64,000 nucleotides of DNA from Candidatus Undinarchaeota archaeon. GTDB lineage: Archaea; SpSt-1190; JASMDC01. The stretch covers positions 1 through 64,000 of the forward strand of contig CAZFHY010000006.1 of the NCBI GenBank assembly GCA_964519305.1. The letters run 5' to 3'. Below the pieces are notes generated by a model that saw only the letters and a program-made list of their open reading frames with translations, had not been told where the DNA came from and ran no database searches. The translations under genes were made by a program, and so were the position numbers. Below, piece by piece: positions 4,911-19,817 of this stretch; within the stretch, counting starts at the first letter, position 1; every line of letters begins with the position of its first letter.

Positions 4911-5141
4911 ATGACTATGATGAACCGATACCTACTGACCCTGATCCTGTCGGTACTCGCCGGCGGGGTGGGGTTGCTACTACTGCACGTCCTGTGGCCA
5001 CTCATCCGATTGCTCCCGGTGGTCGGACAGTACGCGGTCACCGGTGTAGGGGGCATCGCGCTTGCGATCTACCTCGCAGACAGGGCCCGGGAGGTGTTCC
5101 CGCTACCCCTCGAGCCAGCCGACGATCCCGCGAGCGAATAG
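4911..5141 (+). CDS. Small two-TM membrane protein
   Basis: Two hydrophobic stretches; GGAGG just upstream of the MTMM starts. Confidence 0.55.
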   Translation: MTMMNRYLLTLILSVLAGGVGLLLLHVLWPLIRLLPVVGQYAVTGVGGIALAIYLADRAREVFPLPLEPADDPASE

Positions 5142-5279
5142 GATTAAAATTCGCGATTATTAGGATGCATTACATATACAACAAGTCTACTAGAACCTCG
5201 TGAGTAAATCGTTGTACCGAGTAAGTAACGCATGATAGAGTAACAACAAGTAACGACAGGGTTGTAAAACTAGTAGATC

Positions 5280-5699
5280 TCACGTGTCATCTATTATCTC
5301 AAGATAACATATGATATGGGAAATATCTTCATGTATTTTGTTCAGGTTACAATCCATACGTTTGAGAGCACTACAAATTTCTTTGAACACTTCATTCTGA
5401 CTAAGAACCATGTCTTTAAGGTCCGATAATTGAGAATCCGTCACAAGTCTGAGCAGTGGCTTGGTGTCATGTGTGCCCTTCTCTCTTGGAGGTTGTTCTA
5501 CTACCTTGATAGGGCCTTTTCGAATACTCGATCTTCTTTCCTTAGAGGATGAGTTTGCATGTCCCTTATTGGTCCTGGAGCGTTTCAGGTCTCCCCTCTT
5601 GTTTGATCTACCTGAGCACTTTCTCGAGCAATACGTCCCTCGCCTCCTCACCTGGTCTTTAGTAAGAGGCGTCCCACACTCAGGACAATGTTTGGCCAT
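5280..5699 (-). CDS. Zn-finger protein with a C-terminal coiled coil, coupled to the integrase
   Basis: CPECG...YCSRKCS; start overlaps the integrase stop. Confidence 0.6.
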   Translation of the reverse strand: MAKHCPECGTPLTKDQVRRRGTYCSRKCSGRSNKRGDLKRSRTNKGHANSSSKERRSSIRKGPIKVVEQPPREKGTHDTKPLLRLVTDSQLSDLKDMVLSQNEVFKEICSALKRMDCNLNKIHEDISHIICYLEIIDDT

Positions 5700-7000
5700 T
5701 AATCTCCCTCCCCTTTCTCTTCATCGATGGAAGGTTGTCTCTTGCCAGCATCTCCTCCATCCTTCTCTTTCACAAGCTCTTCCGCAAGCTCCCTCGCCCG
5801 TGCCTCAACTTGTTCATCAATTCTCTTAATGAGGATACTAAGGAGCGATGGATCGACCGTAACATTGGGTTGCTCGACGAGGTTCAGCAGATCCTTGGTG
5901 TCGGTGTCAAGAGCTGACTTGAAATTCAGCGCCATTCCGCACTTTGAGCAGAAGCTGGCGTCCTCGGGATTGCGCTCCCCGCACCGCAGGCACTCGACGG
6001 GGACCGGGAGATGGCTTTTACCGTTCTTCCCCTCCTCTTCATCGATCTTGATGCCGTAGACACCGAGGATGGCACCGTCGATATCCCTGCCAGCAAGGTG
6101 AACGTAGGTGGCGGTCATCTTTGTGCCCGGCTCCCAGCCGAAGTAAGCAGCGAGCTGGGAATCGGTGAGATGGTTGGCCAGAAAGGTCGCTCTGCTGTGC
6201 CTGAAGAGGTGTGCGTGGACGTTCTTCTTGATACCGCTGCGCTTGGTGATGCGCCTGATGAGCCCAGCGACAGTGGAGTACGTCATGGGCTTTCCGTTGT
6301 TCTTCACCCACATGGGGGCGTTGGGATCATCCCGGCGGGGATGCATGTTGAGCCAGGCGCGGAGATACGGGTCGGCAGCGAGGAGACGGACACGGCGCAT
6401 ACCGGTCTTACCTATGAGGATGAGCGCGGCGCCGTGCTGGTCCGGGACGAACTGCCTGATCTTTGCTTCCGCCAGCTCCCCGATGCGCGCCCCCGACTCG
6501 TAGAGCGTGATGAGCAGGGCCTTATCCCGATGGTTGCTAGCGGTGTCGACAAGCAACATGACCTCCTCCTCCGTAAGAATCTCTTGGGGGATTTTCTTAC
6601 GGTCCTTGCGGATGCCCGTCTTGATCCACCTGACCTCTTCGGGGAAGTCGTCGCCGGTACCGAGAAGCCACTTGTAGAACTTCTTGATACACACCCGGAA
6701 GTCCTTCTTGGTCCACTCCGAGTAACCGCGGGGGTGGCGTTCGATCTTCCCCAAGAGCGTCTCGATGTCTTTCTGTTTGGCTGCCTCGAAGTCCATTGTC
6801 AGGATCTGAGCAAGCGTCTTGAGGGTGAACACGTACTTGACGGTCCGCGCCAAGCTCAGCCCCTCGGCAGTGCAGTGGTCGGCGAAGCGAAGGATGACCT
6901 TCTTGTTGCGCTCGGAGACGTCCTCGGCCTTCTCTAGGCCGGCCAGAGCGTCCTCGAGCCTTCCTGCATACCCGTAGAGCTGTTCACCACGCGATGTCAT
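5699..7000 (-). CDS. Tyrosine recombinase/integrase with C-terminal Zn ribbon
   Basis: YESGARIGE (R), GKTG (K), HLFRHS (HxxR), FGW, TYVH (Y); CLRCG..N...FCSKCG. Confidence 0.93.
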   Translation of the reverse strand: MTSRGEQLYGYAGRLEDALAGLEKAEDVSERNKKVILRFADHCTAEGLSLARTVKYVFTLKTLAQILTMDFEAAKQKDIETLLGKIERHPRGYSEWTKKDFRVCIKKFYKWLLGTGDDFPEEVRWIKTGIRKDRKKIPQEILTEEEVMLLVDTASNHRDKALLITLYESGARIGELAEAKIRQFVPDQHGAALILIGKTGMRRVRLLAADPYLRAWLNMHPRRDDPNAPMWVKNNGKPMTYSTVAGLIRRITKRSGIKKNVHAHLFRHSRATFLANHLTDSQLAAYFGWEPGTKMTATYVHLAGRDIDGAILGVYGIKIDEEEGKNGKSHLPVPVECLRCGERNPEDASFCSKCGMALNFKSALDTDTKDLLNLVEQPNVTVDPSLLSILIKRIDEQVEARARELAEELVKEKDGGDAGKRQPSIDEEKGEGD

Positions 7001-7058
7001 AGATTATACTAGTATCTAGGTGGTTATAAGTCTTATGGCATGTTTTAAGAAAAACAAC

Positions 7059-7079
7059 TGCCCCTGCCGGGATTTGAAC
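7059..7079 (-). repeat. 21-bp copy of the tRNA-Glu 3' end (att-like relic)
   Basis: TGCCCCTGCCGGGATTTGAAC vs TGCCCCCGCCGGGATTTGAAC at 7128-7148, 1 mismatch. Confidence 0.85.
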
Positions 7080-7127
7080 TTCTCAGTGTGAAGTGATGAT
7101 CTTCTATGTAGCAAGAAGGGGCTAAAG

Positions 7128-7202
7128 TGCCCCCGCCGGGATTTGAACCCGGGTAATTGGCTCGAAAGGCCAACATGATTGACCGGACTACACCACGGGG
7201 GC
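7128..7202 (-). tRNA. tRNA-Glu (TTC)
   Basis: GCCCCCGTGGTGTAGTCCGGTCAATCATGTTGGC-CTTTCGA-GCCAATTACCCGGGTTCAAATCCCGGCGGGGGCA cloverleaf; CCA not encoded. Confidence 0.96.
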
Positions 7203-7255
7203 AGCCCACGTTTGTCCGGAAGGTCTTTTAAACCTAACCCCCGGGCCGCAGGGAG

Positions 7256-7279
7256 GTTACTGAAATTTATTTCAGTAAC
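7256..7279. repeat. Palindrome of the TTACTG-N10-CAGTAA family
   Basis: GTTACTGAAAT-TT-ATTTCAGTAAC, perfect 11-bp arms. Confidence 0.85.
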
Positions 7280-7305
7280 AGCGGTAAGACCTGCCGCAAG
7301 GCACA

Positions 7306-7650
7306 TTATCTCCCGCCCCCCTGGACCACTGAGGGGCGCACGACGTCAGATGATCTGCCCCCCAGTCGCTTCACATCCTCCGGTGTCAGCACGACCTCCC
7401 GCACGAAAACTTGTGCGCCGTGGCGCTCCAGGAGACCGATGACCTCGCCGGCATGACCGCTGGCGACCACCAGCACCGACCGCACGGGCCGCAGGTGCGG
7501 CACCCGCGTGAGGAGGCCGTCCCGCTCGTAGGTGTACCGGCCGTTGTTGGACCTGTCGGTCCAGCCGTACAGCTCGCGGTCGAGCCTGGCCTTGGCCCTG
7601 CCGGAGAGGCCCGGGGACACGAGGTCGTAGCAGATGATCGTCGCATGCAT
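7306..7650 (-). CDS. Small Cas2/VapD-like (ferredoxin-fold) protein, 114 aa
   Basis: MHATIICYDL N-terminal strand ending in YD, GLL..., SVLVV; start re-assigned to ATG 7650. Confidence 0.55.
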   Translation of the reverse strand: MHATIICYDLVSPGLSGRAKARLDRELYGWTDRSNNGRYTYERDGLLTRVPHLRPVRSVLVVASGHAGEVIGLLERHGAQVFVREVVLTPEDVKRLGGRSSDVVRPSVVQGGGR

Positions 7651-7746
7651 CGCTACAGTAGTATAGAGCGGCGATAGTATGAAAAGCTCCGTATACCCCC
7701 CGGAGGGGTATACGAACACGTATAAGCGGACCCGGGACACGGGAGA

Positions 7747-7916
7747 TTACTGAAATATGTTTCAGTAACCCCCGTCCACCCCCGTCGCATGGCGATTACT
7801 GAAATATGTTTCAGTAACCCCCAACCGATCCGGGACTCAGCAAATTACTGTACTTTAGTACAGTAACCCAGAACACCCCCACCACACCCCGGATTACTGA
7901 ATTTAGGTACAGTAAC
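7747..7916. repeat. Four palindromic 23-bp repeats at an exact 49-bp period
   Basis: TTACTG(N10)CAGTAAC starting at 7747, 7796, 7845, 7894, with different 26-bp intervening sequences. Confidence 0.9.
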
Positions 7917-8016
7917 ATACGGATGCTCCCGTCCGCCCCCATGGACGCCGGAGGGGTACCAACGACGACGGTGCAGGGATCAGGACAGGATGTCGTACGG
8001 GCGATCGTTGATGCGT

Positions 8017-8397
8017 CTACATGATGATCTCTTTAACACCCTGGAGGAATCTATCGGCCTTTGTCATCCATTTCCTGGCATCCGACCTGCTCATTTCCTC
8101 CCCTCTGTAATCGACCTTGCTCTTGGTCTGTACGCTGTCCTGGACGATCTGTTTGAGCCCAGCATAAGAGGAGGGGATCTTGTTCGTGACAAGGAGCTCG
8201 TGAAAGAGCTTGATCGCGTCGTCATGTCGTGATGCTTTCCTTCCAAGGAATTCCATGGTCAGTGCATCATTCGCCCGGATGATGGAGTGGATGCACTCAG
8301 CAACGATGACGGTATATTTCTCGCGATCAGCGGAGCTGGCATTGAACAATCCCCTGGCGCTTATGAGCCAGAATCCGGCTTCACGAAGCTCTCTCGT
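8017..8397 (-). CDS. HEPN-domain protein (toxin partner); start uncertain (ACG 8397 or TTG 8349)
   Basis: IHSIIRANDAL...SRHDDAIKLF...KSKVDY HEPN-like pattern; overlaps the upstream MNT gene. Confidence 0.7.
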   Translation of the reverse strand, partial: TRELREAGFWLISARGLFNASSADREKYTVIVAECIHSIIRANDALTMEFLGRKASRHDDAIKLFHELLVTNKIPSSYAGLKQIVQDSVQTKSKVDYRGEEMSRSDARKWMTKADRFLQGVKEIIM

Positions 8398-9376
8398 ACA
8401 TCACCACCCCCCGGTCCAGCTCCTCTCTGAACTCCGATCCATCGAGCTCTTCCCCGGAGGACATGATCAGGGGTATCACCCGTATCCCCGTTCTATCGAG
8501 CGTGCTGCTGGCGATGGAAGCTACACGCGGTTCCAGCTTCCTGTCATCAATGAACACAGCGAGGTCCACATCGCTCTTCAGGCTTTCCTCGCCTCTGGCG
8601 ACACTACCGAAGAGGATGATCCTTCTTACCCCTTTCAACTCCTTGGCCCTCTTGGTGAAGAGCTCAGCTGCCAGTCTGTGCGGGGATGTTCTGATGTCGA
8701 GGACCTTCTTCACTTCCTCGAGGAACGGCGTCGAGCTGTTCAACTTGCATGCGACGGCCTGTCCGATTCGTTCCTTCATTACTACGCCGGCCGAATACAG
8801 GTCCTCGATAAAGCGCCAGACGGTGGAATATGGTCTGTTGGACAGCCTGGCAAGTTCCCTGATGGTAAAGGACCTTGAAGGATATTCGAGAAGCAGCATG
8901 ACGACCTCTTTGTGTTTGGATATCTTGGCCAGGGTCGTATGACGCAGGTATTTCCTGGCCGTCCCGTCTTCTCTTTTGTTCACAGGACTTCGTGATCCTG
9001 TGCGGATCGAGATCCGGGGCGTCCTCATCTCCGCCTTTACCGATAGATGGACCTTATTGTCCACTTCCATCAATCCGAGGCCGAGGCCTTTGATGATCGA
9101 CCGTATCCGGTCCGAGGAGCTGCTCGAAGGTAATGCAAGATAGGAGTAATGGGAACCCGCGGAATGATCGATGGCCCTGGCGATCCCTGAATGGATGTTA
9201 CCCATCCCCCCCTTAACTTCTATCATGATGATGCGGTCGTTCCTTGTGGCAACGATGTCGGGGATGCTACCTTTTACCTTCACCGTTCCCATTATCGAGT
9301 GGCCCGTGCTGACAAGATACTCCTGCACCATCTCCTTTACCTCTCGTTCTGATAAAGTAATATTATTGTTTTTCAT
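8381..9376 (-). CDS. PD-(D/E)XK nuclease-like + wHTH + minimal nucleotidyltransferase fusion
   Basis: IPDIVA...IEVKG; FTIRELARLS HTH; LFGSVARGE..SDVDL. Confidence 0.8.
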   Translation of the reverse strand: MKNNNITLSEREVKEMVQEYLVSTGHSIMGTVKVKGSIPDIVATRNDRIIMIEVKGGMGNIHSGIARAIDHSAGSHYSYLALPSSSSSDRIRSIIKGLGLGLMEVDNKVHLSVKAEMRTPRISIRTGSRSPVNKREDGTARKYLRHTTLAKISKHKEVVMLLLEYPSRSFTIRELARLSNRPYSTVWRFIEDLYSAGVVMKERIGQAVACKLNSSTPFLEEVKKVLDIRTSPHRLAAELFTKRAKELKGVRRIILFGSVARGEESLKSDVDLAVFIDDRKLEPRVASIASSTLDRTGIRVIPLIMSSGEELDGSEFREELDRGVVMYERAS

Positions 9377-9467
9377 TTTGGTTAGTATTATCCATTACTA
9401 AAATAAATAGTTTCCCAATCCAGATGAGAATGTGCGCTCGCCTCCACAGGCACAATGACACGGCCAT

Positions 9468-9602
9468 GGTATGAATAGCTCTGTAGACCCCCGAACGGAG
9501 TAACGAATACGTATGAGCGGGCCCGGGACATTGAGAATTACTGAATCTTGTTTCATTAACAATGGTACGCCCCTGTCCGCCCCCATGGACGCTGTCGGGA
9601 CG
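9468..9602. repeat. Copy of the intergenic repeat (leader + palindrome 9538-9560 + GC hairpin)
   Basis: GTATGAATAGCTCTGTAGACCCCCG...TTACTGAATCTTGTTTCATTAAC...CCCCTGTCCGCCCCCATGGACGC aligns with 7676-7769/7917-7958 and 14397-14524. Confidence 0.75.
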
Positions 9603-11279
9603 TCACCCCACGCACGAGATTGCCGGGTTCCCGCCCGCAGTGTCCAGCGTCCCCGCGCTGCTCCATTCGCTCCCGTCCCAGGTCGAGGCCTTGATACTGC
9701 CTCCGTCGTACACCACCATGCACGAGCTCGATGTCGTGCAGAAGACGTCGGGACGTTCACCAGTGCCCACCGTCGCCGCCGTCCCCCACGCGGCGCCGTT
9801 CCACGAGGCGGCCTTGACGCTGCTGCCCTCCATCCACGCGGCCATGCAGAAGGACGTCGTGGGGCAGGACACGAAGGGGTACCGATCATCGGCCCCGTTG
9901 TCGGTCAGCGCGCTGTCCGTGCTCCAGGCGGCGCCGTTCCACGTGGCGTAATGGATCTCGTTGTCCCCCCCGTTGTTCCCGTCCCAGGTGGCCATGCAGA
10001 AGGACGTCGTGGGACAGGACAGGTCGGGATCGTAGTCGTGGAACGCATTGTCGTTCATGATGGTCGCAGAGCCCCACGATGCGCCGTTCCACGCGAAGTA
10101 CGCGATCTCGTAGTCCCCGCTGCCCGGGTGCTTGGACCATATCGCCATGCAGGAGCTCGACGAGGGACAGGATACGGAGGACCGGTAATCGTTGTACGAG
10201 TTGTCGGTCAGCGCGGTGACGGAGCTCCACGAGGCGCCGTTCCACGAGGCGGCCCTGACATCGTAGCCCGGCGAGGCCATGGCCTCCCAGGTGAGCATGC
10301 AGGAGCTCGAGGAGGGGCAGGAGAGGGAGGGGTACTGATCAACGACCGCGTTGTCGGTGAGCGCGGTCTCGGCGCTCCAGGCGGCGCCGTTCCACGCGGA
10401 GTACTTGATCTCCGCGCCCCCCGCGGTGTATCCACCCCAGGTGACCATGCAGGAGGATGACGAGGCGCAGGATAGGGAGGAAATAAGGTCATTGTACCCG
10501 TTGTCGCTCACCGCGGCGGCCGTGCTCCAGGAGGCGCCGTTCCACGTGGCGGACATGATCTCTTCGTCGTTCCCGTCGGACTTCCACCAGGTGGCCATGC
10601 AGAATCCCGGCCCGGTGCCCGTGCCCGACCCCGTCCCGGTCCCGCTGCCACTGCCCGTCCCCGACCCGCCGCCGCCCGACGTCGCTGCGACCCCGCCCTC
10701 GATCTTGCCCGAGCACACGGCCGACTCGCTGTGGCCGCCGATGGCGTTGAACACGTCGTACGAGATCTTGACCTTGGCACGGTACACGCTCATCGCCTTC
10801 AGGTCGAGCATCCCCCTGCCCACGTCCTCCATGGAGAAGGTGGCCATCTCGCCCTCGGTGACGTTCTGCTCCTGGCAGCCTGAGTCGGTGTCGTCCGCGG
10901 TGTTGTAGTAGTCGCAGTCGTACCCGCGCTCGGACCATGTCACATGGACGCCCTCGGGGTACTCCACGTCGATGCCCCTGATGCGCAGGGTCTCTCCGGC
11001 ACCGTTCTGCACCCGTAGCTGGAACACGCTCTCGCGCTCGGTCTCTGACGACCACACGGTCCAGAGCCCGGCCGTACCGGTCCCGCGGAACAGGTGGTCC
11101 TTGTAGTGGATGTGATGGAACCCCACGCAGCCCTTCTTCTGGTAGGTGGAGGGGTTGAGGATGCCCATGGCGTACAGGGACGCTCCTGCGATGACCAGGA
11201 TGACCAAAAGCCACCCGTAGGTCATCAGGAACTCCATCGCTGCCTGTGCACGACCTGTCTTGAGTCTCACGAGGGCCAC
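9603..11279 (-). CDS. Class III signal-peptide (pilin-like) surface protein with a C-terminal repeat/beta-propeller domain
   Basis: RAQAAMEFLMTYGWLLVILVIAG; G/S/T linker; about six CMxxW...WNGAxWS...TDN repeats. Confidence 0.85.
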   Translation of the reverse strand: MALVRLKTGRAQAAMEFLMTYGWLLVILVIAGASLYAMGILNPSTYQKKGCVGFHHIHYKDHLFRGTGTAGLWTVWSSETERESVFQLRVQNGAGETLRIRGIDVEYPEGVHVTWSERGYDCDYYNTADDTDSGCQEQNVTEGEMATFSMEDVGRGMLDLKAMSVYRAKVKISYDVFNAIGGHSESAVCSGKIEGGVAATSGGGGSGTGSGSGTGTGSGTGTGPGFCMATWWKSDGNDEEIMSATWNGASWSTAAAVSDNGYNDLISSLSCASSSSCMVTWGGYTAGGAEIKYSAWNGAAWSAETALTDNAVVDQYPSLSCPSSSSCMLTWEAMASPGYDVRAASWNGASWSSVTALTDNSYNDYRSSVSCPSSSSCMAIWSKHPGSGDYEIAYFAWNGASWGSATIMNDNAFHDYDPDLSCPTTSFCMATWDGNNGGDNEIHYATWNGAAWSTDSALTDNGADDRYPFVSCPTTSFCMAAWMEGSSVKAASWNGAAWGTAATVGTGERPDVFCTTSSSCMVVYDGGSIKASTWDGSEWSSAGTLDTAGGNPAISCVG

Positions 11280-11355
11280 CTTCTCGCGGTATATTCAAGT
11301 CCCTCGGGATATAAAACATTTGCGCGAAACGCTCGCGCAACGGTGCGGCTACCGG

Positions 11356-11420
11356 GGATTGTAGTTTAGTACAGTAACACACGGACGCCCCAACAGCCCC
11401 CCTGGACGCGAAAGGGGCCG
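11356..11420. repeat. Degenerate palindrome + GC hairpin repeat copy
   Basis: TTTAGTACAGTAACACACGGACGCCCC...TGGACGCGAAAGGGGC. Confidence 0.75.
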
Positions 11421-11478
11421 CAACGTCGGACATCGCACCCGTCGGGGACAAAAGACAGGTCCCTCGTGCCAGTCCCCC

Positions 11479-11718
11479 TCATTCAGGCCAATCAGGCCAA
11501 CTGGCCTCGCCGCAGTTATACCTCACGCAGCGTGGGTAGCTCGAGCCGTCCGCCATGGTCTGCTCGAGGCAGAGTTTCTCGCATGGGGTCTGGGGTTTGT
11601 TCGCGGGCGCCGGGCCGGTCGCAGCCTGCTGCTGCATCTGGTAGAGCGTGTACACGTTGACCAGCAGGGAAAGTGCCGCCACCAGGAGCACGATGCGCAG
11701 GAGGGTCCGATCGTCCAT
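11479..11718 (-). CDS. Small single-TM PAN-motif protein with a Cys-containing tail
   Basis: MDDRTLLRIVLLVAALSLLVNVYTLYQM...PAPANK; paralogous to the 21084-21625 peptides. Confidence 0.75.
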   Translation of the reverse strand: MDDRTLLRIVLLVAALSLLVNVYTLYQMQQQAATGPAPANKPQTPCEKLCLEQTMADGSSYPRCVRYNCGEASWPDWPE

Positions 11719-11778
11719 GCAGGGCCGAATGCCCAGTAGCTATTTAACAATAGCTAGAGCGGCCCCCCTGCCCCGCCC

Positions 11779-11810
11779 ACCTGCAGCCCCCCTGGACGCG
11801 TAAGGGGCAC
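11779..11810. repeat. GC hairpin repeat copy
   Basis: CTGCAGCCCCC...TGGACGCGTAAGGGGCAC. Confidence 0.7.
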
Positions 11811-11890
11811 TACTGTCACATGAATATGACAAAAAAAGGCCTATACCGTCCAGTCTATAAGACAGCTATATAAATAGAAAAAGACATAGT

Positions 11891-13225
11891 ATGTACATGG
11901 AGCTCATCGACCGGATCGCCCGGTGGAACCCGTGGTGGTCGGAGCGGTGTGTGGACCCCGCGCTCCTCGGCACGGAGCGGGAGGTGGAGGACATCCTCGC
12001 CGCGACCGGTGAGCTCAGGCATATCAAGGACATCATCGGGGTCAGGCGCTCGGGGAAGACGACGGTCCTCCTCCGGACGGTCCAGCGCGCCATCGACGCG
12101 GGCGTCGATCCGCGGGACATCGTGTTCCTCAACTTCGACGACGCCGTCCTTGCGGGAGCGACGTTCGAGGAGCTGGACGACGCGGTCTTCCAGCACAACC
12201 CCGACACGTCGCACATGCTCGTCGACGAGGTGCAGCAGAAAGCGGGATGGGAACGGTGGATGCGGACCCTCCACGACCTGAGGCGGCTCGAGCAGGTCTT
12301 CGTCTCCGGATCGTCCTCGTCCCTGCTCTCCCGGGAGCTCGGTCGCACCCTGACGGGAAGGCACGTCAGCTGTACCGTGCACCCCTTCTCGTTCAGGGAG
12401 TACCTCTGCCATATCGGATGGGATGACCTCTCCCCGGAGCGGTTGCGGGCGGAGAGGGACAGGGTGCAGCACCACCTGGCCCGGTACCTGGAGTACGGGG
12501 GGTTCCCGGAGACGGTGGGCAGGGGCGATCTCTCCAGGAGGATGCTGCTCCTGGACGTGTTCAAGGACATCATGTCCCGTGACGTCGCATCGCGGCACGA
12601 CGCCGAGGCGGACAAGCTCGAGCGCGTGGCGACCTGGCTTTTAACGAACGCCGGCAAGGAGTACACGCTCAGGAGCGTGTCGAGGGCGACGGGTGTGTCG
12701 GTGGCGAGCGTCGAGCGCTACATCTCCCATCTCAAGGAGGCGTTCCTGGTGCTCGAGCTCGAGCTCTTCACCTACAAGCTCAAGACCCGGTTCAGGGCGA
12801 ACAAGAAGGTCTACTGCATCGATACCGGCCTCCGCAACACCGCCTCGCTCCGCTTCTCGTCGGACATGGGGCGTCTTGCAGAGAACGCGCTCTTCCTGGA
12901 GCTGGTCAGGGACCCCTGGAGGAGGGTCTTCTACTGGAAGAGCAGGACGTCCGAGGTGGACTTCGTGGTAACCGACCGTGGGTACACCGTCGAGGAGCTC
13001 GTCCAGGTGTGCTGGGATGTGCGCGATGACGACACGCGGGCGCGGGAGGTGAAGGGTCTTCTCGAGGCGATGCGACTATTCGGGAAGGACGAGGGGACGA
13101 TCGTCACGCGTGACCGCGAGGCAGTGGAGGACGTGGGGGGGATGACCGTCCGCTTCGTACCGCTGTGGAAGCGGTTGCTGGTGCGCGCGAAGGAGAGCGG
13201 ACCGTCGACCGATGTTCGTAGGTAA
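11891..13225 (+). CDS. AAA+ ATPase, AAA_14/DUF4143 family
   Basis: GVRRSGKTT, VDEVQ, SGSSS, LTGR, YGGFPE, KVYCIDTG, SEVDFV. Confidence 0.92.
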   Translation: MYMELIDRIARWNPWWSERCVDPALLGTEREVEDILAATGELRHIKDIIGVRRSGKTTVLLRTVQRAIDAGVDPRDIVFLNFDDAVLAGATFEELDDAVFQHNPDTSHMLVDEVQQKAGWERWMRTLHDLRRLEQVFVSGSSSSLLSRELGRTLTGRHVSCTVHPFSFREYLCHIGWDDLSPERLRAERDRVQHHLARYLEYGGFPETVGRGDLSRRMLLLDVFKDIMSRDVASRHDAEADKLERVATWLLTNAGKEYTLRSVSRATGVSVASVERYISHLKEAFLVLELELFTYKLKTRFRANKKVYCIDTGLRNTASLRFSSDMGRLAENALFLELVRDPWRRVFYWKSRTSEVDFVVTDRGYTVEELVQVCWDVRDDDTRAREVKGLLEAMRLFGKDEGTIVTRDREAVEDVGGMTVRFVPLWKRLLVRAKESGPSTDVRR

Positions 13226-13266
13226 GGACGCTCCTGTCCGCCCCCATGTACGCGAAAGGGGCGCCC
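13226..13266. repeat. GC hairpin repeat copy
   Basis: GACGCTCCTGTCCGCCCCCATGTACGCGAAAGGGGCGCCC. Confidence 0.75.
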
Positions 13267-13321
13267 GTGTCAACGATACTTTCACCGGGACTACCGCTCG
13301 CGCAACGGTAGCGGCGACGAC

Positions 13322-13750
13322 CTACTCAGTAGCGGACGTCCCTTCCAAGAGCTCGAGCAGCCGGGGAGCGTGCTCGATGTAGAACGCCCTGATGTCCTCG
13401 GCGTCCCTGGCCGATACCGTCCTTCCGTAGTACTTGGAGGCGTTCCTGCGCCGGCGGTAGCGGTCGATCCGGGCGACGGTACCCTCGGACACCCCCTTCG
13501 TTCTCAGATAGGCGATGGCCGCCTCGTGCGAGTAGGTCTTGTACCCGTCCCGGGCCAGAAGGGCATCACAGACCTCGCGCAGGCAGTCGTAGAGGTTCTC
13601 GAACACCAGCATCGCGAACCTGCTAGTGTCGAGGGCCAGTGCCATCCCGCACCGCGACCCCACGTCCTTCTCAAGCGACCGGGCGAGCGATGGGTCCGAC
13701 GCCACTTTCCGGACCTTTCCCTGCCTGAGGTAGAGCTCGAAGTCCTTCAG
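13322..13750 (-). CDS. HEPN-domain protein; probable CTG start overlapping the MNT stop
   Basis: YDCLRE..DALL..DGYKTYSHEAAIAYL...RRRRNASKYYG; frame open back to (L)KDFELYLRQGKVRK. Confidence 0.8.
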   Translation of the reverse strand: MKDFELYLRQGKVRKVASDPSLARSLEKDVGSRCGMALALDTSRFAMLVFENLYDCLREVCDALLARDGYKTYSHEAAIAYLRTKGVSEGTVARIDRYRRRRNASKYYGRTVSARDAEDIRAFYIEHAPRLLELLEGTSATE

Positions 13751-14265
13751 AGAGACAGCCTCCCGTGGACGACGATGCCGTTGGCGAGGTTCTCGGTGAA
13801 CTCGTCCGACACAGTTCCCTTCTCGACGACCAGGAGGTGGACGCTCCTCTTGAGGACCGCTTCGAACGTCCCGAGGTCGGGATGCTCGTCCGACGAGGTG
13901 ACGACGGCGATGTCGATATCGCTCTCCGACCAGTCCTCGCCCCGGGAGTAGCTGCCGATGAGCACGACCGCCTCCGGATCGTCGTAGAACGCGACGAGGT
14001 GATCGACAAGACCGCTCGAGTAGAGCCTGCCGATGTTGTCGAGCTGCTTGGCGCGCCGGTACCTTGTCGAGCCGGTCCCGGCCCGTATCTCCACGAGGTG
14101 CTTCCGACGCTCCCTGGCCACGATGCCCTCTTCTTCCAGCCGGTCCACGACCGTGGATACGGTGTTGGGGTTCAGGCCGGTGGCGCGGGCCAGCTCCCGC
14201 AGGTGATACCGATATTCCGGTCTATCGAACAGTGCCTTGAGCACCTGCGATCTACTGTCTGACAT
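13747..14265 (-). CDS. wHTH + minimal nucleotidyltransferase antitoxin
   Basis: YHLRELARATGL HTH; LIGSYSRGEDWSESDIDIAV; start re-assigned to MSDSRSQ. Confidence 0.88.
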   Translation of the reverse strand: MSDSRSQVLKALFDRPEYRYHLRELARATGLNPNTVSTVVDRLEEEGIVARERRKHLVEIRAGTGSTRYRRAKQLDNIGRLYSSGLVDHLVAFYDDPEAVVLIGSYSRGEDWSESDIDIAVVTSSDEHPDLGTFEAVLKRSVHLLVVEKGTVSDEFTENLANGIVVHGRLSL

Positions 14266-14367
14266 ATTATACGCCTGTATAATATATTCTACAGTTGTAT
14301 AAATAATTATCCCTTCTCCTCCCGAGGTGCGGTCGTCACATACCAACCGTGGCCCCGTCCTTCCGCA

Positions 14368-14530
14368 CATCCCTACTGTATCATAGTGCACTGATAGTAT
14401 GAGAAGCTCTGTACACTCCCCGGCGGGGTAACATGAACGTATAAGCCGGACACAGAAAATTACTGTACTTTAGTTCAGTAACACACGGACGCTCCTGTAC
14501 GCCACCATGGACGCTGTCGGGGCACCGACG
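14368..14530. repeat. Intergenic repeat copy A (first 121 bp near-identical to 15470-15590, then GC hairpin)
   Basis: Direct sequence comparison, 1 mismatch; palindrome at 14460-14482. Confidence 0.92.
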
Positions 14531-14552
14531 TCAGGATAACGGATTCTCGTCC

Positions 14553-15041
14553 CTATCCGAGCAAGGAGCGCATCTCGCTCTTTCGGAACCTGAACGAATC
14601 CTCGCTCTCAAGCTCCCTGACGATCCGCTCCATTTCAGGGCGCTCCACGAATCCAGCATCGTGACATGCCAGCAGGAACGAGAACGTGTCTATCACATTA
14701 ACACCGTGCGACCGTGCGGCCTTCATCGCCGCCTTGTCGTTCATGAGCAGGGACGCATCCCTTTCGACGGCCAACGAGATCGCTTCCCGCTCACCCTCTC
14801 CCAGCGGAAGGTTCGTGATGCTCTTGTTCGCCCTTTGCACGAGGAGCGGTCTCTTCATGGTGGCTTCCTCCTCGGAGAACGCCAGAAGGTCATGGTGCTC
14901 CTCAAAGAAGTCCGTCCTGTCGATCTCCTTCAGGACGGCCAGTGGTATGATGACGGACGTGCATCGGAAGAAGGCCAGGATAAGCTCCAGTCTGTTGATC
15001 TTGATGAACGTGCTGAGAAAATCCGTATCGATAACGATCAC
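14553..15041 (-). CDS. PIN-domain toxin (DUF3368-like)
   Basis: IVIDTDFL, LGEGEREAISLA, LLMNDKAA. Confidence 0.88.
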   Translation of the reverse strand: MIVIDTDFLSTFIKINRLELILAFFRCTSVIIPLAVLKEIDRTDFFEEHHDLLAFSEEEATMKRPLLVQRANKSITNLPLGEGEREAISLAVERDASLLMNDKAAMKAARSHGVNVIDTFSFLLACHDAGFVERPEMERIVRELESEDSFRFRKSEMRSLLG

Positions 15042-15385
15042 TTCTTGGACCTTCCCGCGACGGTCATCGCGTGCCTTACCATCTCCTCCATCTCCGCGGC
15101 CGATCCGCCCACCTTTCTCGCGATCCCCCGTTCATGGAGCATGTCCTTCATCTCCTCGATGCTCACGTCGGCTATCTCCGAGGCCTTCCCCAGCGAGATC
15201 TCCTCCTTGTCGTAGAGCGCGCAGGCCAGGGCGGACCTGACGTCCCGCCTCGCCGCCAGTAGGGTGCGGATCGCATCGCGGATGAACTCGCTCTTGTTAT
15301 CGTAGTAGCCCGTGCTCGCAACGACGTCCAGTTCCTTCTTCATCAGCGGGGGGAGCGTGAAGCTCACGGTCATGCTTGCCATCAT
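15038..15385 (-). CDS. RHH + UPF0175 antitoxin
   Basis: GYYDNKSEFIRDAIR; ISLGKASEIA; operator-like CAATACT-AC-AGTATTG just upstream. Confidence 0.85.
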   Translation of the reverse strand: MMASMTVSFTLPPLMKKELDVVASTGYYDNKSEFIRDAIRTLLAARRDVRSALACALYDKEEISLGKASEIADVSIEEMKDMLHERGIARKVGGSAAEMEEMVRHAMTVAGRSKK

Positions 15386-15469
15386 ATCACCAATACTACA
15401 GTATTGTTGTGGTAATATATTAACCTGTCGACCACCGTCCGATGGTGTCGGTGTCCCCTGTCTGGCGCG

Positions 15470-15630
15470 CATCCCTACTGTATCATAGTGCACTGATAGT
15501 ATGAGAAGCTCTGTACACTCCCCGGCGGGGTAACATGAACGTATAAGCCGGACACAGAAAATTACTGTACTTTAGTACAGTAACACACGGTCGCTTCTGC
15601 AGCCACCACGGACGCGGAAGGGGCACCCGT
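15470..15630. repeat. Intergenic repeat copy B
   Basis: 121-bp match to 14368-14488; palindrome 15562-15584; GGACGCGGAAGGGGCAC hairpin. Confidence 0.92.
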
Positions 15631-15642
15631 GACGACGGACCT

Positions 15643-17235
15643 CTACGATATGGTGAACTTCTGCACCCGGTCGTTGCCTATTTCGACCACGTACGCGACA
15701 CTGTTCCCCGAGACCACCACGTCGTTGGGGCCGTTGAGCTCGCCGTCGCCGCTGCCGGATGCGCCCGTCCTCCCGGACCCGGGGTCGTGCCAGCCGGTCC
15801 CGCCCTGGTCGTCCTTTCCCCACCAGCCCAGGAAGGTACCGCTCGTGTCGAACACCTGGATGCGGTGATTGCCCCGGTCCGCCACGTACACACGGTCGCT
15901 GGTGTCGATATGGATGCCCCACGGGGCGGAGAACTCGCCGTCGCCGGTGCCTGAGGCGCCGCCCGTCCTCCCGGACCCGGGCGCGTGCCAGCCGGTCCCG
16001 CCCTGGTCGTCCTTGCCCCACCAGCCCAGGAAGGTGCCGTCGGACGTGAACTTCTGGACACGGTGGGTACTTCCCACCACGTACACGTTGCCGCTGGAGT
16101 CGACGGCGATGCCCAGGGGGAGAGAGAACTGGCCGTCGCCGGTGCCCGACGAGCCCCACTTGATGACGTAGACGCCCGCAGTGGTGAGTTTCTGGATGCG
16201 ATTGTTATACCGATCGGTCACGTACACGTTGCCGCTGCCGTCGAGGACCACGTCGGTGGGCCCGTTCAGATCACCGTCACCGCTTCCCTCAGCGCCCCAC
16301 GTCCGCACGAAGGCGCCAGCGGAGGTGAACACCTGGACGCGATCGTTCCTGATATCCGCCACGTACACGTCCCCGTTCCCGTCGACGTCGAGCCCGAAGG
16401 CACCCTCGAACTCGCCGTTGCCGCTACCCTGCGAGCCCCATTTCCGCAGGAAGGTGCCGTCGGAGTCGAACACCTGGATGCGCTCGTTATCATAGTCGCC
16501 CACGTGCACGTTCCCGCTCCCGTCCAGGGCCAGGTAGAGCGGCGAATCGAACTGACCGTCGCCCGTACCGGTCGAGCCCCACTTGCCCGCGTAGGTCGCC
16601 GACGAACCGCTGCCCGTACCACTGCCGCTGCCCGAGGTGCTTGCGCTCCCGCCCTCGATCTTTCCCGAGCACACCGCCACCTCGGAGTGGTCGGCCAGCG
16701 CGTTGAACGCGTCGAATGTCACCTTGACCTTCATGCGGTACACGGTCCCGTGGCGCAGGTCGAGCGTGCCTCGGCCCACGTCCTCCATGGACAGTGTCGT
16801 TACCTCGGCCTCGGACACGTTCTGCTCCTGGCATCCTGAGTCGGTGTCGTCGGCGGTGTTGTAGTAGTCGCAGTCATAGCCCCGTTCGGACCAGGTGACG
16901 TGCACGCCCACAGGGTACTCCACGTCCACGCCCCTGATACGCAGGGTCTCTCCGGCGCCGTTCTGCACCCGCAGCTGGAACACGCTCTCGCGCTCGGTCT
17001 CACTTGACCACACGGTCCACAGCCCGGTCTCTCCGGTGCCCCGGAACTTGTGGTCCTTGTAGTGGACCTTCTCGAAGCCCACGCACCCGGTCTTCATGTA
17101 GGTGGAGGGGCTGAGGATGCCCATGGCGTACAGTGCAGCGCCCGCTATGACAAGGATGACCAAAAGCCACCCGTAGCTCATGAGGAACTCCATCGCTGCC
17201 TGTGCGCGCCTGTCCTGTGCTCTCAATACTGCCAC
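15643..17235 (-). CDS. Class III signal-peptide (pilin-like) protein with a C-terminal NHL-repeat beta-propeller
   Basis: N-terminal ~195 aa paralogous to 9603..11279; GDGQF..P.GIAVD..GNVYV.D..N.RIQ NHL repeats. Confidence 0.88.
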   Translation of the reverse strand: MAVLRAQDRRAQAAMEFLMSYGWLLVILVIAGAALYAMGILSPSTYMKTGCVGFEKVHYKDHKFRGTGETGLWTVWSSETERESVFQLRVQNGAGETLRIRGVDVEYPVGVHVTWSERGYDCDYYNTADDTDSGCQEQNVSEAEVTTLSMEDVGRGTLDLRHGTVYRMKVKVTFDAFNALADHSEVAVCSGKIEGGSASTSGSGSGTGSGSSATYAGKWGSTGTGDGQFDSPLYLALDGSGNVHVGDYDNERIQVFDSDGTFLRKWGSQGSGNGEFEGAFGLDVDGNGDVYVADIRNDRVQVFTSAGAFVRTWGAEGSGDGDLNGPTDVVLDGSGNVYVTDRYNNRIQKLTTAGVYVIKWGSSGTGDGQFSLPLGIAVDSSGNVYVVGSTHRVQKFTSDGTFLGWWGKDDQGGTGWHAPGSGRTGGASGTGDGEFSAPWGIHIDTSDRVYVADRGNHRIQVFDTSGTFLGWWGKDDQGGTGWHDPGSGRTGASGSGDGELNGPNDVVVSGNSVAYVVEIGNDRVQKFTIS

Positions 17236-17315
17236 CGGTTCTCGCAGGGATGGTTAGGCGCTCGGGGTTTAAAACACTTGCTTGAAACGGTCGCGCAACG
17301 GTGGGTGGACCGACG

Positions 17316-17669
17316 TCAGGTCTCGCGACAGTCGGGCGTACCGTCCCCGTCCGTGTCGACGGTGTCGTCGTTACCGGGACAGATGTCGCACCCGTCAGGG
17401 ATGCTGTCACCGTCCAGGTCGAGATAGTCGTCATGACCCGGGCAGACGTCGCACGCGTCAGGTACGCTGTCACCGTCCGTGTCCATCCCGTCAGAGAACT
17501 GATCGATGCACGCGTCACGCCAGGAGTTCGCGGGCGCCACCGTCCCGTCGATGTCCGGGGGCGTCATCTGGACGTACGCGACGGCCACCACGAACGCCAC
17601 CAGGAACAGTCCCATGAGCGCGTAAACGAGATGGAGGTGGTCATCCGCGGCGTCGATGGTGGCGTCCAT
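17316..17669 (-). CDS. Single-TM PAN-motif protein with thrombospondin type-3-like Ca-binding repeats
   Basis: TM helix, VAPANSW, three DxDGDxxPDxC repeats. Confidence 0.78.
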   Translation of the reverse strand: MDATIDAADDHLHLVYALMGLFLVAFVVAVAYVQMTPPDIDGTVAPANSWRDACIDQFSDGMDTDGDSVPDACDVCPGHDDYLDLDGDSIPDGCDICPGNDDTVDTDGDGTPDCRET

Positions 17670-17723
17670 GGGCGATGAAAGGGGCCACAGTTATTTATGG
17701 GTATTGATGGCTGCCCGCCAGCC

Positions 17724-19817
17724 CTACGGTACCACGAACTCGGTCATCTTGGTCCCCGCCACGTCGCCGAAGTTCTCGGCGTTACGCATCCGCACATGCG
17801 ATCCGACGACCTTGCTGTACACGGTGGTGTACAGGTCCGAGATGTAGATGTTCTGGTTGCGCGACACCGTCATGATCACGTTGTGCGTGAAGTCGTCGGC
17901 CAACCACGCCTTCACCTCGCCGTCATAGTTGGCGCCGAACGACTGCTCGTTCAAAGCCGCACCGGTGAAGTACAGCACGCCGGGCGTGTCGATCCTGAGC
18001 CCGACGCTCTCGCCGAAGCACACCTCTACCATGATGAACATCTTGCGGAACCGTCCCCGCTTGTGCATGGTGTCGGTGATCTCAGCGATCTCTGTCGCCG
18101 AGAGAGGTCCCCCGTGGTCGAAGGGGATGGCGCCGGGCATGCCGTGGTCCACTATGAACAGGAACACGTTGCTCGACTCGTCGCTCTCCACCACCACTGG
18201 CGTCGCCTCGCTCTTCTCGCCGAGCAGCACCGCCCTGAGGTTCTCTACTGTGACCTGCTCGCCCACGTAGTCCACCGTCACGTCCTTGCGCACGTTGGGG
18301 CCCAGCGGGATGTGCCGGACAACGCCCTGCAGCGGGTTCTCGGAAAGGTACGGGATGTCGTCGATCAAAAAGAGGATGATGCGGTCGTCGGGCACGCCGT
18401 TGCTGCGCAACAGCCGGTACATGGCCAGGGCGTCGGCCTGGTGCCGGTAGTTCTTCCAGTCCTTGCTGGTGGCGATGATCACGGTCCACAGGTCGCCCCG
18501 GGCGCCCACCGACGGGCCAGCGGTCGTGCCGTCGAACACCGAGGCAGTTTCCATGCTGGTCCCGGCCAGGGCCATGGACGCTTTGTTGCTCCCGCCGAGC
18601 ACGTCGCCCGAGCTGAGCGTCGCTGCCGTGTGGAACGCGCCGTCGGTAACCTCCCACCGGGCGTAGAAGGCGCCCAAGGGCTCCACACCATGGAGCCGGT
18701 CGAAGGTCAGCGGCCCCGAGGCGCCGGCGATGTCGGGACGTCCGCCATCGACGATCAGAGAGATACCCTCGGTCACCTGGTCCCAGCCGACATGACGGCC
18801 CCGTCCGGCGAGCACGGTCCGCAACGAGTCCTCGGGCCATTCCCAGCCCCGCTTGTGCTGGTGGCGGGCCAGGGCGTACACCGACATGAGGAACGCGTCG
18901 TAGGTGGCGGCGCCATAGGTGTTCGGCTCCTCACCGAACTTCTCGAGGTACGCCTCGGCGAAACCCGCCGTCGGGTCCATGGCGGGCGCAGTGCCCTCCA
19001 GTCCGTTGGCGGCGTCACCCAGCGTCTCGACAAGGTGCGGTGCCTGGGCCGCGTCGGCGAAGAACGGACGGACGTCGCTGCCGGTGGCGGCGAGGTCGGC
19101 GGCTATGGTCGCCGCCTCCCCGGGCAGCGCCACGATCAGCAGGTACTCAGGATCGCCCGCGGTCGCCGTGGCGATCTCGGTGGCATAGCTGTCCTGCCCG
19201 CGTTCGAACGATGACATGCCCGTGAAGTTCACACCCATCTCCAGGGCGAAGAACGGCGTCCAGTCAAGGAACGTCTTGCCGTACCCGGTGTCCTCGTACA
19301 ACAGGCCGATCCGCTCGACACCCCGCAGCTTCAGGATGTGGAGCATGGTCTTGATCTGGGCCACGTCCCCCACGCACGTTCGCCAGAAGTACTTCTTGCG
19401 GCCGAACGCACGGCCCAGGTCGGCCGACGTCGCAGTGGGCGTGATCAGCAGCTTGCGGTGCCGGACGAAAAGAGGTGCCAGGTCGAACGACTCGTCACTG
19501 GTCACCGGGCCGATAACGACCTTTATGTCGTCATCAGCGAGCATCTCACCCGCCAGCGTTCGCAGATCGCCGACGGCAAGGTCGCGGTACACCAGCTCCA
19601 CCGGCCGCCCGCCGATGCCGCCAGCGTCGTTCACCATGGCCACACCCCAGTCCAGTGTCTTGTCGAGGCCCATGTCGATGGGCCCGGTGAGATGGAGCAG
19701 CACGCCGATCCGGTACGGTCGCGCGTCACGGAACCGGAGGTACCCCAGGCCTGCCGAGACAACGATGATCGTGATGGTCAGGTAGAGCAGTGCCCGGTGT
19801 CGCCGGTCGCGTGCCAT
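17724..19817 (-). CDS. Membrane-anchored branched-chain-amino-acid-type solute-binding domain fused to a C13 (legumain/GPI8) cysteine peptidase
   Basis: VNDAGGIGGRPVELV binding domain; WKNYRHQAD, IVDHG, VEVCFGES catalytic His/Cys motifs. Confidence 0.88.
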   Translation of the reverse strand: MARDRRHRALLYLTITIIVVSAGLGYLRFRDARPYRIGVLLHLTGPIDMGLDKTLDWGVAMVNDAGGIGGRPVELVYRDLAVGDLRTLAGEMLADDDIKVVIGPVTSDESFDLAPLFVRHRKLLITPTATSADLGRAFGRKKYFWRTCVGDVAQIKTMLHILKLRGVERIGLLYEDTGYGKTFLDWTPFFALEMGVNFTGMSSFERGQDSYATEIATATAGDPEYLLIVALPGEAATIAADLAATGSDVRPFFADAAQAPHLVETLGDAANGLEGTAPAMDPTAGFAEAYLEKFGEEPNTYGAATYDAFLMSVYALARHQHKRGWEWPEDSLRTVLAGRGRHVGWDQVTEGISLIVDGGRPDIAGASGPLTFDRLHGVEPLGAFYARWEVTDGAFHTAATLSSGDVLGGSNKASMALAGTSMETASVFDGTTAGPSVGARGDLWTVIIATSKDWKNYRHQADALAMYRLLRSNGVPDDRIILFLIDDIPYLSENPLQGVVRHIPLGPNVRKDVTVDYVGEQVTVENLRAVLLGEKSEATPVVVESDESSNVFLFIVDHGMPGAIPFDHGGPLSATEIAEITDTMHKRGRFRKMFIMVEVCFGESVGLRIDTPGVLYFTGAALNEQSFGANYDGEVKAWLADDFTHNVIMTVSRNQNIYISDLYTTVYSKVVGSHVRMRNAENFGDVAGTKMTEFVVP

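Follow-up and report, generated by a model that had tools for sequence, protein, structure and literature searches.

We analysed a 64,000-nt stretch of DNA from an uncultured marine Candidatus Undinarchaeota archaeon (contig CAZFHY010000006.1, positions 1 to 64,000; hereafter the window), in which small gene modules follow one another beside a tRNA-Glu gene and are separated by a repeated, non-coding linker. The array occupies C6:7254-15639 (contigs are designated by C-numbers) in the genome that holds the window, G000, which is 3.63 Mb long in 42 contigs and 99.83% complete. The sole genome of the same genus available for comparison, G001, has an array on its contig C67. A third lineage is represented by run X9 of a separate study, whose contigs are ~90% identical, and three source-like runs (X1, X3 and X8) were available as Logan contigs only. 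The evidence base consists of one genus, draft genomes and contig-level population data.

The array comprises eight modules, each made of one gene or a toxin-antitoxin (TA) pair, and seven of the eight lie on the minus strand. Its linkers combine a palindrome, a conserved GC-rich stretch (GC block) and a leader. Palindrome-bearing units are numbered u1 to u9 from the tRNA-Glu side. The features of the locus are as follows.

5699-7000, minus strand: tyrosine recombinase of 433 aa (PF00589, 9.2e-21) with a C-terminal Zn_Ribbon_1
7056-7079, no strand: 24-nt copy of the tRNA-Glu 3' end, 92% identical to 7125-7148
7127-7202, minus strand: tRNA-Glu (UUC), proximal anchor of the array (ARAGORN; Rfam tRNA, 63.8 bits)
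7257-7278, no strand: palindrome u1, first junction, ~55 nt upstream of the tRNA (exact motif)
7310-7340, plus strand: GC block of the first cassette (motif)
7306-7650, minus strand: cassette 1, small ferredoxin-fold protein of 114 aa (open reading frame (ORF), AlphaFold2)
7647-7727, plus strand: leader (nhmmer, 4e-16)
7747-7915, no strand: palindromes u2 to u5, 49-bp spacing (exact motif)
7921-7969, plus strand: GC block (nhmmer, 2.8e-7)
8017-9376, minus strand: cassette 2, HEPN-like gene (8017-8349) and wHTH-MNT nucleotidyltransferase gene (8381-9376) (Polbeta, NTP_transf_2; PDC-M05A, 3e-17)
9438-9611, plus strand: linker with leader (9438-9518), palindrome u6 (9538-9559, one mismatch) and GC block (9565-9611) (motif, nhmmer)
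9603-11279, minus strand: cassette 3, pilin-like protein with ~50-aa W-rich repeats (ORF)
11356-11428, plus strand: degenerate palindrome u7 (right arm) and GC block, without leader (motif, nhmmer)
11479-11718, minus strand: cassette 4, membrane-anchored small protein of 79 aa (ORF)
11780-11820, plus strand: GC block without palindrome (nhmmer, 0.002; motif)
11891-13225, plus strand: cassette 5, AAA_14/DUF4143 ATPase, on the opposite strand (PF13173, 6e-28; PF13635, 1e-19; PDC-S01, 2e-95)
13226-13274, plus strand: GC block abutting the ATPase stop codon, without palindrome (nhmmer, 1.2e-7)
13322-14268, minus strand: cassette 6, HEPN-like gene (13322-13705) and wHTH-MNT gene (13747-14268) (Pfam HTH, Polbeta; PDC-M05B, 3e-7; PDC-M05A, 1e-17)
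14366-14538, plus strand: linker with leader (14366-14446), palindrome u8 (14460-14481) and GC block (14487-14538) (nhmmer composite, 2e-58)
14553-15388, minus strand: cassette 7, PIN-like toxin gene (14553-15041) and RHH/UPF0175 antitoxin gene (15038-15388) (UPF0175, 3.9e-11; PDC-S70, 3e-17)
15467-15639, plus strand: linker with leader (15467-15548), palindrome u9 (15562-15583) and GC block (15590-15639) (nhmmer composite, 3e-54)
15643-17235, minus strand: cassette 8, pilin-like protein with NHL repeats (NHL, 4e-29), the last linker-bounded module in G000

Paired small genes with toxin and antitoxin domains, as in type II or type VII TA systems, are present in the cargo. An earlier note, made from the letters of the window alone, had listed MNT-HEPN pairs, a PIN TA pair, an AAA ATPase, pilins and a Cas2-like protein. 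Pfam supports the two MNT domains (2.8e-8 and 3.5e-8), the UPF0175/RHH protein and the AAA_14/DUF4143 ATPase, as well as the NHL repeats. For the PIN and HEPN partners, the matches were limited to the PADLOC candidate-defence families PDC-S70 (3e-17) and PDC-M05B (3e-7), with a weak hit to PIN_4 (E 0.013), and the HEPN-like gene at 8017-8349 had no supporting family match. PADLOC placed the PIN pair, the MNT/HEPN pairs and the ATPase all in candidate-defence families. The pilin-like protein of cassette 3 has no Pfam match, and cassette 4 has weak paralogs elsewhere in the G000 genome.

The Cas2-like label had been given to cassette 1, whose product matches neither Pfam nor NCBIfam. It belongs to a family of ~100-aa uncharacterised proteins (343 cluster representatives at E<=1e-3); 63 of the 64 members scanned had no Pfam match, and the remaining one was a chance match. 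Its AlphaFold2 model (predicted local distance difference test score of 88) is a ferredoxin-like sandwich. The best E value of a profile search against the PDB was 0.59; structural comparison with the PDB gave a best E of 0.0087 by Foldseek and a best Z of 7.4 by VIA, with no Cas2 in the top 50, and the ESM Atlas returned unnamed archaeal clusters only. The protein thus has a generic ferredoxin-like fold without a significant Cas2 match, and the label is not confirmed. Cas1 (PF01867) has no match in the G000 genome.

Architecture and distribution of the linkers

The 22-bp palindrome TTACTG-N10-CAGTAA recurs between gene modules over 7257-15640. The exact pattern TTACTG-N8-12-CAGTAAC has eight matches in the window, which represent seven sites (7257, 7747, 7796, 7845, 7894, 14460 and 15562), that at 7257 being also read on the minus strand. 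Dinucleotide shuffles gave an expectation of 0.00 matches, and none of 100 reached eight. Relaxed matching added the sites at 9538, with one mismatch (CATTAA), and 11356, with the right arm only. The inverted arms measure 6-9 bp around a free centre of 4-6 bp. Palindromes u2 to u5 follow a single leader with a period of 49 bp, and the three spacers between them consist of pieces of the GC block and of the pre-palindrome stretch.

The GC block has the core CCCCC[AC]TGGACGC...GGGGC. A relaxed motif found eight copies on the plus strand, at 7316, 7936, 9580, 11397, 11787, 13241, 14502 and 15603, and one unrelated minus-strand match at 43617; nhmmer backs eight copies in the window, with E values of 7e-12 to 0.2. 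Folding four units as DNA on both strands (eight folds) gave z-scores from +0.27 to -3.26 and no consistent hairpin. The GC block is a conserved sequence block with no dependable hairpin. The leader, ~80 nt long, is present in the four copies listed above (nhmmer E of 4e-16 to 9e-25). It carries another small inverted repeat (TACCCC-N5-GGGGTA), and GATAGTATGA is invariant in it.

All three parts share one orientation throughout the array. Their usual order on the plus strand is leader, a 12-nt pre-palindrome stretch, palindrome and GC block, which together make up a composite linker of ~190 nt. Read in the direction of the minus-strand genes, a module is followed by the GC block, the palindrome, the leader and the next module, and each following module has its own AT-rich region just before the start codon, as judged by reading the sequence. 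The leader of cassette 1 reaches the start codon on the minus strand and therefore probably holds the promoter region of that gene; it is ~90% conserved in G001 over its first ~60 nt. Leaders are found only with minus-strand modules of TA type; plus-strand modules and pilins directly abut the palindrome or the GC block. Comparison of 19 units showed that the right palindrome arm is nearly always intact and that six units have a degenerate left arm. A GC block nearly always follows on the right of the palindrome; on its left there can be a leader, the end of a gene or a promoter, including that of the tRNA.

These results bear out most of what the earlier note had said of the linker parts. Of its palindrome sites, seven are exact, one has a mismatch and one keeps the right arm alone. 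What it called a GC hairpin is a repeated block, with an additional copy at 7316, and the hairpin itself was not recovered. The leader, given as ~90 bp, and the common orientation were both found as described.

We looked for structured RNA in the linkers. A search of 5000-18000 against Rfam (E<=1) returned tRNA only, and RNAalifold on nine units gave -7.6 kcal/mol with a covariation term of +0.3, hence no covariation support. Reading of the aligned units showed no conserved T-run after the palindrome hairpin. By eye only, we noticed CGCTCGCGCAACGGT within a small inverted repeat at 11318-11345 and 13293-13318, near two linkers.

A profile search (nhmmer with four profiles over the 3.63-Mb G000 genome) showed that the composite is confined to the array locus, save for one partial unit at C6:94953-95049. 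The latter lies upstream of a paralogous pilin gene, and an inverted GC block (C6:97408-97447) comes right after the stop codon of that gene. Solitary palindromes are found at C9:86229, C12:85845 and C42:1503. The C9 and C42 copies are located between the 3' ends of genes or beyond them, and the C12 copy is 83 nt upstream of a gene. The C42 palindrome (1503-1525) is perfect, 28 nt after a dph2-like gene and at an assembly break, C42 continuing into the end of C2; the solitary palindrome accounts for the break in the contig. At the orthologous dph2 site, G001 has a different palindrome, TTATCAG-N7-CTGATAA. Matches with one mismatch outside the arrays are at control level (three and six in the controls). 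The earlier statement that there are no copies elsewhere is thus correct for the window, and the genome-wide scatter that the same note had set against its proposal was not seen.

An exact palindrome scan of 61 genomes gave matches in six, including G000. Only that of G001 is identical to a G000 palindrome; the other four genomes have one site each, in unrelated sequence. A 34-nt pattern searched in one genome per GTDB species retrieved the G001 record and two bacterial matches at chance level, and it had no match in viral contigs. In metagenomes it was found at eight distinct loci, three of which (L053, L057 and L058) carry the composite by nhmmer. These three are in the order of G001 and therefore add no new arrangement.

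Turnover of the array and conservation of the palindrome

In G001, contig C67 encodes the integrase and tRNA-Glu, followed by a 5.5-kb array with seven palindromes and five GC blocks (by motif) in the same orientation. Its cassettes are an ortholog of cassette 1, a 277-aa plus-strand gene, another HEPN/wHTH pair, a truncated PIN gene with an RHH gene, a ParE/DUF7557 pair (ParE match, 2.5e-10) and an RHH/UPF0175 gene. At the nucleotide level, the two arrays have in common only cassette 1 (7127-7768, 81%), an RHH-PIN stretch (14905-15624 in G000 and C67 3780-4501 in G001, 81%), one 49-bp unit that runs from palindrome to palindrome, and the linkers. The unit at 7796-7866 is 83% identical to C67 5151-5221, at a different position in the array. 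Past cassette 1, homology ends at 7768, the right edge of the palindrome, and synteny resumes at ~22073 of the window. The HEPN-MNT pair of cassette 2 (8027-9434) is 81% identical to G001 C82 5288-6696, where it lies among ordinary genes and without linkers; in G000 this homology halts 4 nt before the leader.

Run X9 shows further neighbour relationships. One contig links PIN-RHH to the first MNT-HEPN pair through ~245 nt, and another joint leads from 7769, the right palindrome edge on the side of the first leader, into a pilin-like gene. A leader comes after the GC block of the ATPase, and the promoter of the NHL pilin is followed by a pre-palindrome stretch and a palindrome that are absent in G000. 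The contigs of runs X1, X3 and X8 have the window order only, with no alternative joints at linkers. No excision products were seen, but contigs drop rare variants, so these runs say nothing about excision. An apparent joint on opposite strands (9561/11246) in the same three runs is explained by the paralogous pilin locus at C6:94953-95340.

Thus, the order at tRNA-Glu is not fixed in relatives, and G001 and X9 differ from G000 in content or neighbours. With different modules or neighbour orders in its relatives, the array looks like a gene-shuffling array, and it resembles one of a kind not yet described. This agrees with the earlier proposal of a gene-capture or shuffling array in so far as cassettes turn over at the repeats.

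Two further features were noted. A repeat of ~100 nt, called R2, forms direct repeats that flank the HEPN-MNT pair in G001 C82 (4977-5079 and 6713-6815). It is present in G000 at C8:129923-130030 and C17:88920-89025 and sits at rearrangement junctions. As RNA it folds at -43 to -46 kcal/mol (z -3.8 and -4.5), with no Rfam match; it may be an attachment site (att)-like or non-coding RNA target for module insertion. On the integrase side of the tRNA, window 1144-4312 contains a 967-aa ORF that resembles the R subunit of type I restriction enzymes, and a gene for a YgjP-like metallopeptidase. This segment has no counterpart on G001 C88, so the integrase side of the tRNA is also variable.

The palindrome is under selection. 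The u1 region (7256-7279) is identical at 24 of 24 positions between G000 and G001, in flanks of 67-83% identity. The solitary palindrome at C12:85845 has an orthologous copy at G001 C20:20385, within 5 kb of 84.6% identity, in which the arms are kept and the centre is changed. Several comparisons also place breaks in similarity at or near the palindrome. A 107-nt tract (14368-14474) is identical between u8 and u9 and ends inside the palindrome (centre at 14470/14471); over the ~45 nt that follow, the two differ by seven mismatches plus gaps. For v3 and v5, similarity is 43% in the 30 nt to the left of the palindrome centre and 93% to its right. Leaderless cassettes come within ~6 nt of the palindrome; in G001, a stop codon at 2027 is followed by a palindrome at 2034. 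In a change-point test, 13 of 16 unit pairs (permutation p<=0.0067) split at the right palindrome edge or at the gap block just after it, and all 13 involve u2 or v7.

Candidate recombinases and explanations for the array

The best NCBIfam model for the integrase at 5699-7000 is XerA_Arch, at 95 bits and thus below the cut-off of 220. With the integron integrase model TIGR02249 it scores 36.6 bits against a cut-off of 265, and it is not an IntI. It is kept beside tRNA-Glu in G001 and is present in run X9; nothing but its persistence next to the array in three lineages speaks for a link. The integrase is a weak candidate. The array is on the 5' side of tRNA-Glu, and the integrase faces the 3' end of the tRNA. 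Between the tRNA and the start of the integrase gene, the copy at 7056-7079 is absent from G001, and its variant matches the tRNA of G001; it looks like an att remnant of an integration event at the tRNA. With up to two mismatches, copies of the tRNA end gave three matches in the window, two at the tRNA and one at tRNA-Asn, and none in or beyond the array; copies that could bound an element are thus found on the integrase side only.

All three integrase family members that we examined lie 3' of tRNA genes, and a phylum-wide search gave matches in 3 of 17 genomes. The 3' end of the window integrase has no second copy in the G000 genome, unlike that of its paralog on C17. The latter gene (10284-11597) is next to tRNA-Cys (11619-11691), and a 174-nt direct repeat (259-432 and 10272-10445; 92%), 10 kb apart, covers the integrase 3' end, which suggests an integrated element of ~10 kb. 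The genome also encodes a bona fide XerA (C14:109173-109943; NF040815 XerA_Arch, 232.9 bits against a cut-off of 220). The candidate recombinases are the 5699-7000 integrase, its C17 paralog, XerA and a Xer-like protein (C29:16472-17344).

We propose, with slightly less than even confidence, that this is a lineage-specific cassette array in which a recombinase, probably of the tyrosine class, makes crossovers centred at the palindrome. It would thus be an attC-independent analogue of integrons and dif modules. The array would be anchored upstream of tRNA-Glu, with modules that usually have their own AT-rich proximal promoters. A site-specific recombinase, most probably of the tyrosine class, would use the palindrome as its core site for crossover; modules would leave as circles and enter again at any other palindrome, and cassettes would in this way be lost, gained and re-ordered. 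Leader and GC block would serve as accessory arms and also in expression or insulation. Such an array would store and shuffle TA or candidate-defence modules and surface adhesins. The flanks of cassette 1 are those of all the others, and the other modules therefore look like replacements of its gene body. The fuller claim, that of a previously undescribed attC-independent archaeal cassette system of independent origin, in which a palindromic core with ~190-bp arms serves as the crossover site for a XerA-type or tRNA-linked tyrosine recombinase and circles are formed, we consider doubtful.

Several observations weigh against crossover at the palindrome. The best change point between u8 and u9 is alignment column 197, to the right of the palindrome, so the observation of tracts that end at it comes down to two pairs. 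At two junctions (11780 and 13226), the GC block is not accompanied by a palindrome. On C9 and C42, solitary palindromes are found on the 3' side of ordinary genes, which, with the different palindrome at the dph2 site of G001, could mean that the palindrome acts as a terminator or binds a protein. The arrays were shaped by ordinary deletions as well: G001 has a truncated PIN gene and keeps 53 nt of the start and promoter of the MNT gene of cassette 6 (45 of the 53 positions are identical; the alignment scores 66, and the shuffle maximum is 27), and plain deletions have therefore occurred. The linker family is known from one genus only, and no recombinase is tied to the palindrome. The footprint of the neighbouring integrase, a repeat of the tRNA 3' end, is unlike the palindrome, and its C17 paralog (39%) and a homolog in G005 (38%) are beside tRNA-Cys, neither with an array. 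Together with the location of the array 5' of the tRNA, the att-like remnant at the 3' end and the low score with the IntI model, this speaks against the earlier suggestion that the neighbouring integrase serves the array.

Homologous recombination or gene conversion between the linkers is a rival that we take seriously without finding it probable. In that case, the ~190-nt direct repeats would be expression or insulation modules copied along with an ancestral cassette, each made up of a 3' flank, a palindrome that is terminator-like or bound by protein, and an upstream promoter. Breaks at the palindrome might stimulate the exchange, and there would be no dedicated recombinase. As expected from homogenisation within the genome, u8 and u9 share 93-96% identity over 147-149 nt, and identity to the orthologous G001 unit is ~80%. 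The promoter that the leader must hold for cassette 1, the restriction of leaders to minus-strand TA-type cassettes, the junctions without palindrome, the plain deletions and the solitary palindromes 3' of housekeeping genes all fit as well. However, the palindrome is far better conserved than the remaining linker, homology breaks at its edge or centre, and the 49-bp unit found at different positions in both species offers little homology for RadA-type exchange. Homologous recombination alone leaves the presence of unrelated modules between constant flanks unexplained, and the lack of a conserved T-run after the hairpin does not favour this account either. The part of the earlier note that had repeats seeding homologous recombination stays alive, without the mobile-element identity that it gave to them.

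That identity was a family of the miniature inverted-repeat transposable element (MITE) or repetitive extragenic palindromic (REP) type. A small non-autonomous element of MITE, palindrome-associated transposable element (PATE) or REP-like nature, inserted repeatedly between genes, would account for a short, structured, non-coding unit with palindromes and for the HEPN-MNT pair that has no unit in G001, as if one had been added in G000. Yet all copies are in one orientation at one locus, with one further partial copy in 3.63 Mb; self-BLAST of the G000 genome revealed no abundant short repeat families, and the units differ in the parts they carry. Terminal inverted repeats and target duplications were not noticed, though no systematic test was made. 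Since the units are local, in single orientation and not dispersed, we regard such an element as very improbable. Better placed, but still improbable, is a role of the palindrome as the operator through which a transcription factor would co-regulate the modules together with a few other genes, the array being incidental. In the orthologous solitary site, the arms are kept and the centre is not constrained, the sites lie ~100-200 nt upstream of minus-strand operons (83 nt upstream of the C12 gene) and several cargo proteins have wHTH domains; nevertheless, an operator explains neither the ~190 nt of nucleotide homology around the site nor the single orientation and cassette turnover, and the C9 and C42 sites are between or after gene 3' ends. 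A leader followed by one to four partly palindromic repeats with a 49-bp period, beside a small ferredoxin-fold gene, also recalls small RNA genes or a degenerate clustered regularly interspaced short palindromic repeats (CRISPR)-like array with leader, repeat and Cas2-like gene. We give this very little weight: the Rfam and covariation results do not support it, the 'spacers' are linker fragments rather than unique sequences, one of them being conserved in G001 at another array position, and there is no Cas1 match in a nearly complete genome and no significant Cas2 match.

Cassette arrays of other kinds provide points of comparison for a recombinase-driven array. Like sedentary chromosomal integrons, it consists of tandem, mostly co-oriented small modules separated by a recombination-site-like repeat, with an adjacent tyrosine recombinase gene and a content that differs between close relatives. 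The cargo of chromosomal integrons is likewise rich in genes of TA or defence type. However, IntI is absent here, and the place of an attC is taken by a composite of ~190 nt that surrounds a perfect 22-bp palindrome. An attC site (R''-L''...L'-R', with a folded bottom strand) has the core consensus GTTRRRY / RYYYAAC, which, on direct reading, the palindrome ends GTTACTG / CAGTAAC do not fit. The cassettes described here also have promoter-like regions of their own, some contain two genes or are on the opposite strand, and a tRNA gene separates recombinase and array. The known archaeal integrons have canonical IntI and attC, as outlined in PMC9668308. Literature listings and the opening lines of abstracts contained no description of a non-attC cassette array in archaea.

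Acinetobacter plasmids carry dif (pdif) modules, as outlined in PMC13141974, PMC6449649 and PMC7399989. These are also discrete modules, many of them TA pairs, bounded by short palindromic sites of tyrosine recombinase type and shuffled among replicons or positions. Their enzyme is a housekeeping Xer encoded elsewhere, and the XerA on C14 would be its counterpart. The dif site is 28 bp long (11-6-11), whereas the palindrome has 22 bp with arms of 8-9 bp and a centre of 4-6 bp; moreover, the linkers are all in direct orientation with long conserved flanks, and the array is chromosomal and archaeal. Tandem accretion of cis-mobilizable elements (CIME) and integrative mobilizable elements (IME) similarly yields serial, integrase-less units with the same bounding site near a tRNA and an integrase gene. 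In contrast, the site repeated here is not derived from the tRNA, and the array is on the tRNA 5' side. Its units, single genes or TA pairs, measure 0.4-1.7 kb, against several kb for such elements.

Should the palindrome prove to be a true crossover site, cassette capture and shuffling would have been invented independently outside IntI/attC, in an archaeal lineage. This would bear on the exchange and re-ordering of defence, TA and adhesin genes in uncultured marine archaea, and it would provide a second model beside integrons and dif modules for the formation of cassettes. The palindrome is short and easily testable, and there are four candidate recombinases only. If the linkers only guide homologous recombination, the locus would still be a clean natural case of modular island evolution, with three lineages that can be compared.

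Pilin-like paralogs and a third HEPN-MNT pair

The pilin-like proteins of cassettes 3 and 8 belong to a family with at least 12 members in G000. They have in common an N-terminal domain of ~195 aa with the motif QAAMEFLM..GW, and their C-terminal parts are unrelated, consisting for instance of NHL repeats or of W-rich 50-aa repeats. In addition to the two cassettes (9603-11279 and 15643-17235), members are encoded at C6:95211-97402 and on C1, C2, C10, C13, C14 and C20. The gene at C6:95211 has a palindrome with GC block on one side and an inverted GC block on the other.

The variable region has at its distal edge a third pair of HEPN-like and wHTH-MNT genes (21739-22703 of the window). G001 has a conserved copy of the MNT gene of this pair (22173-22703) at C67 8219-8981 (82%).

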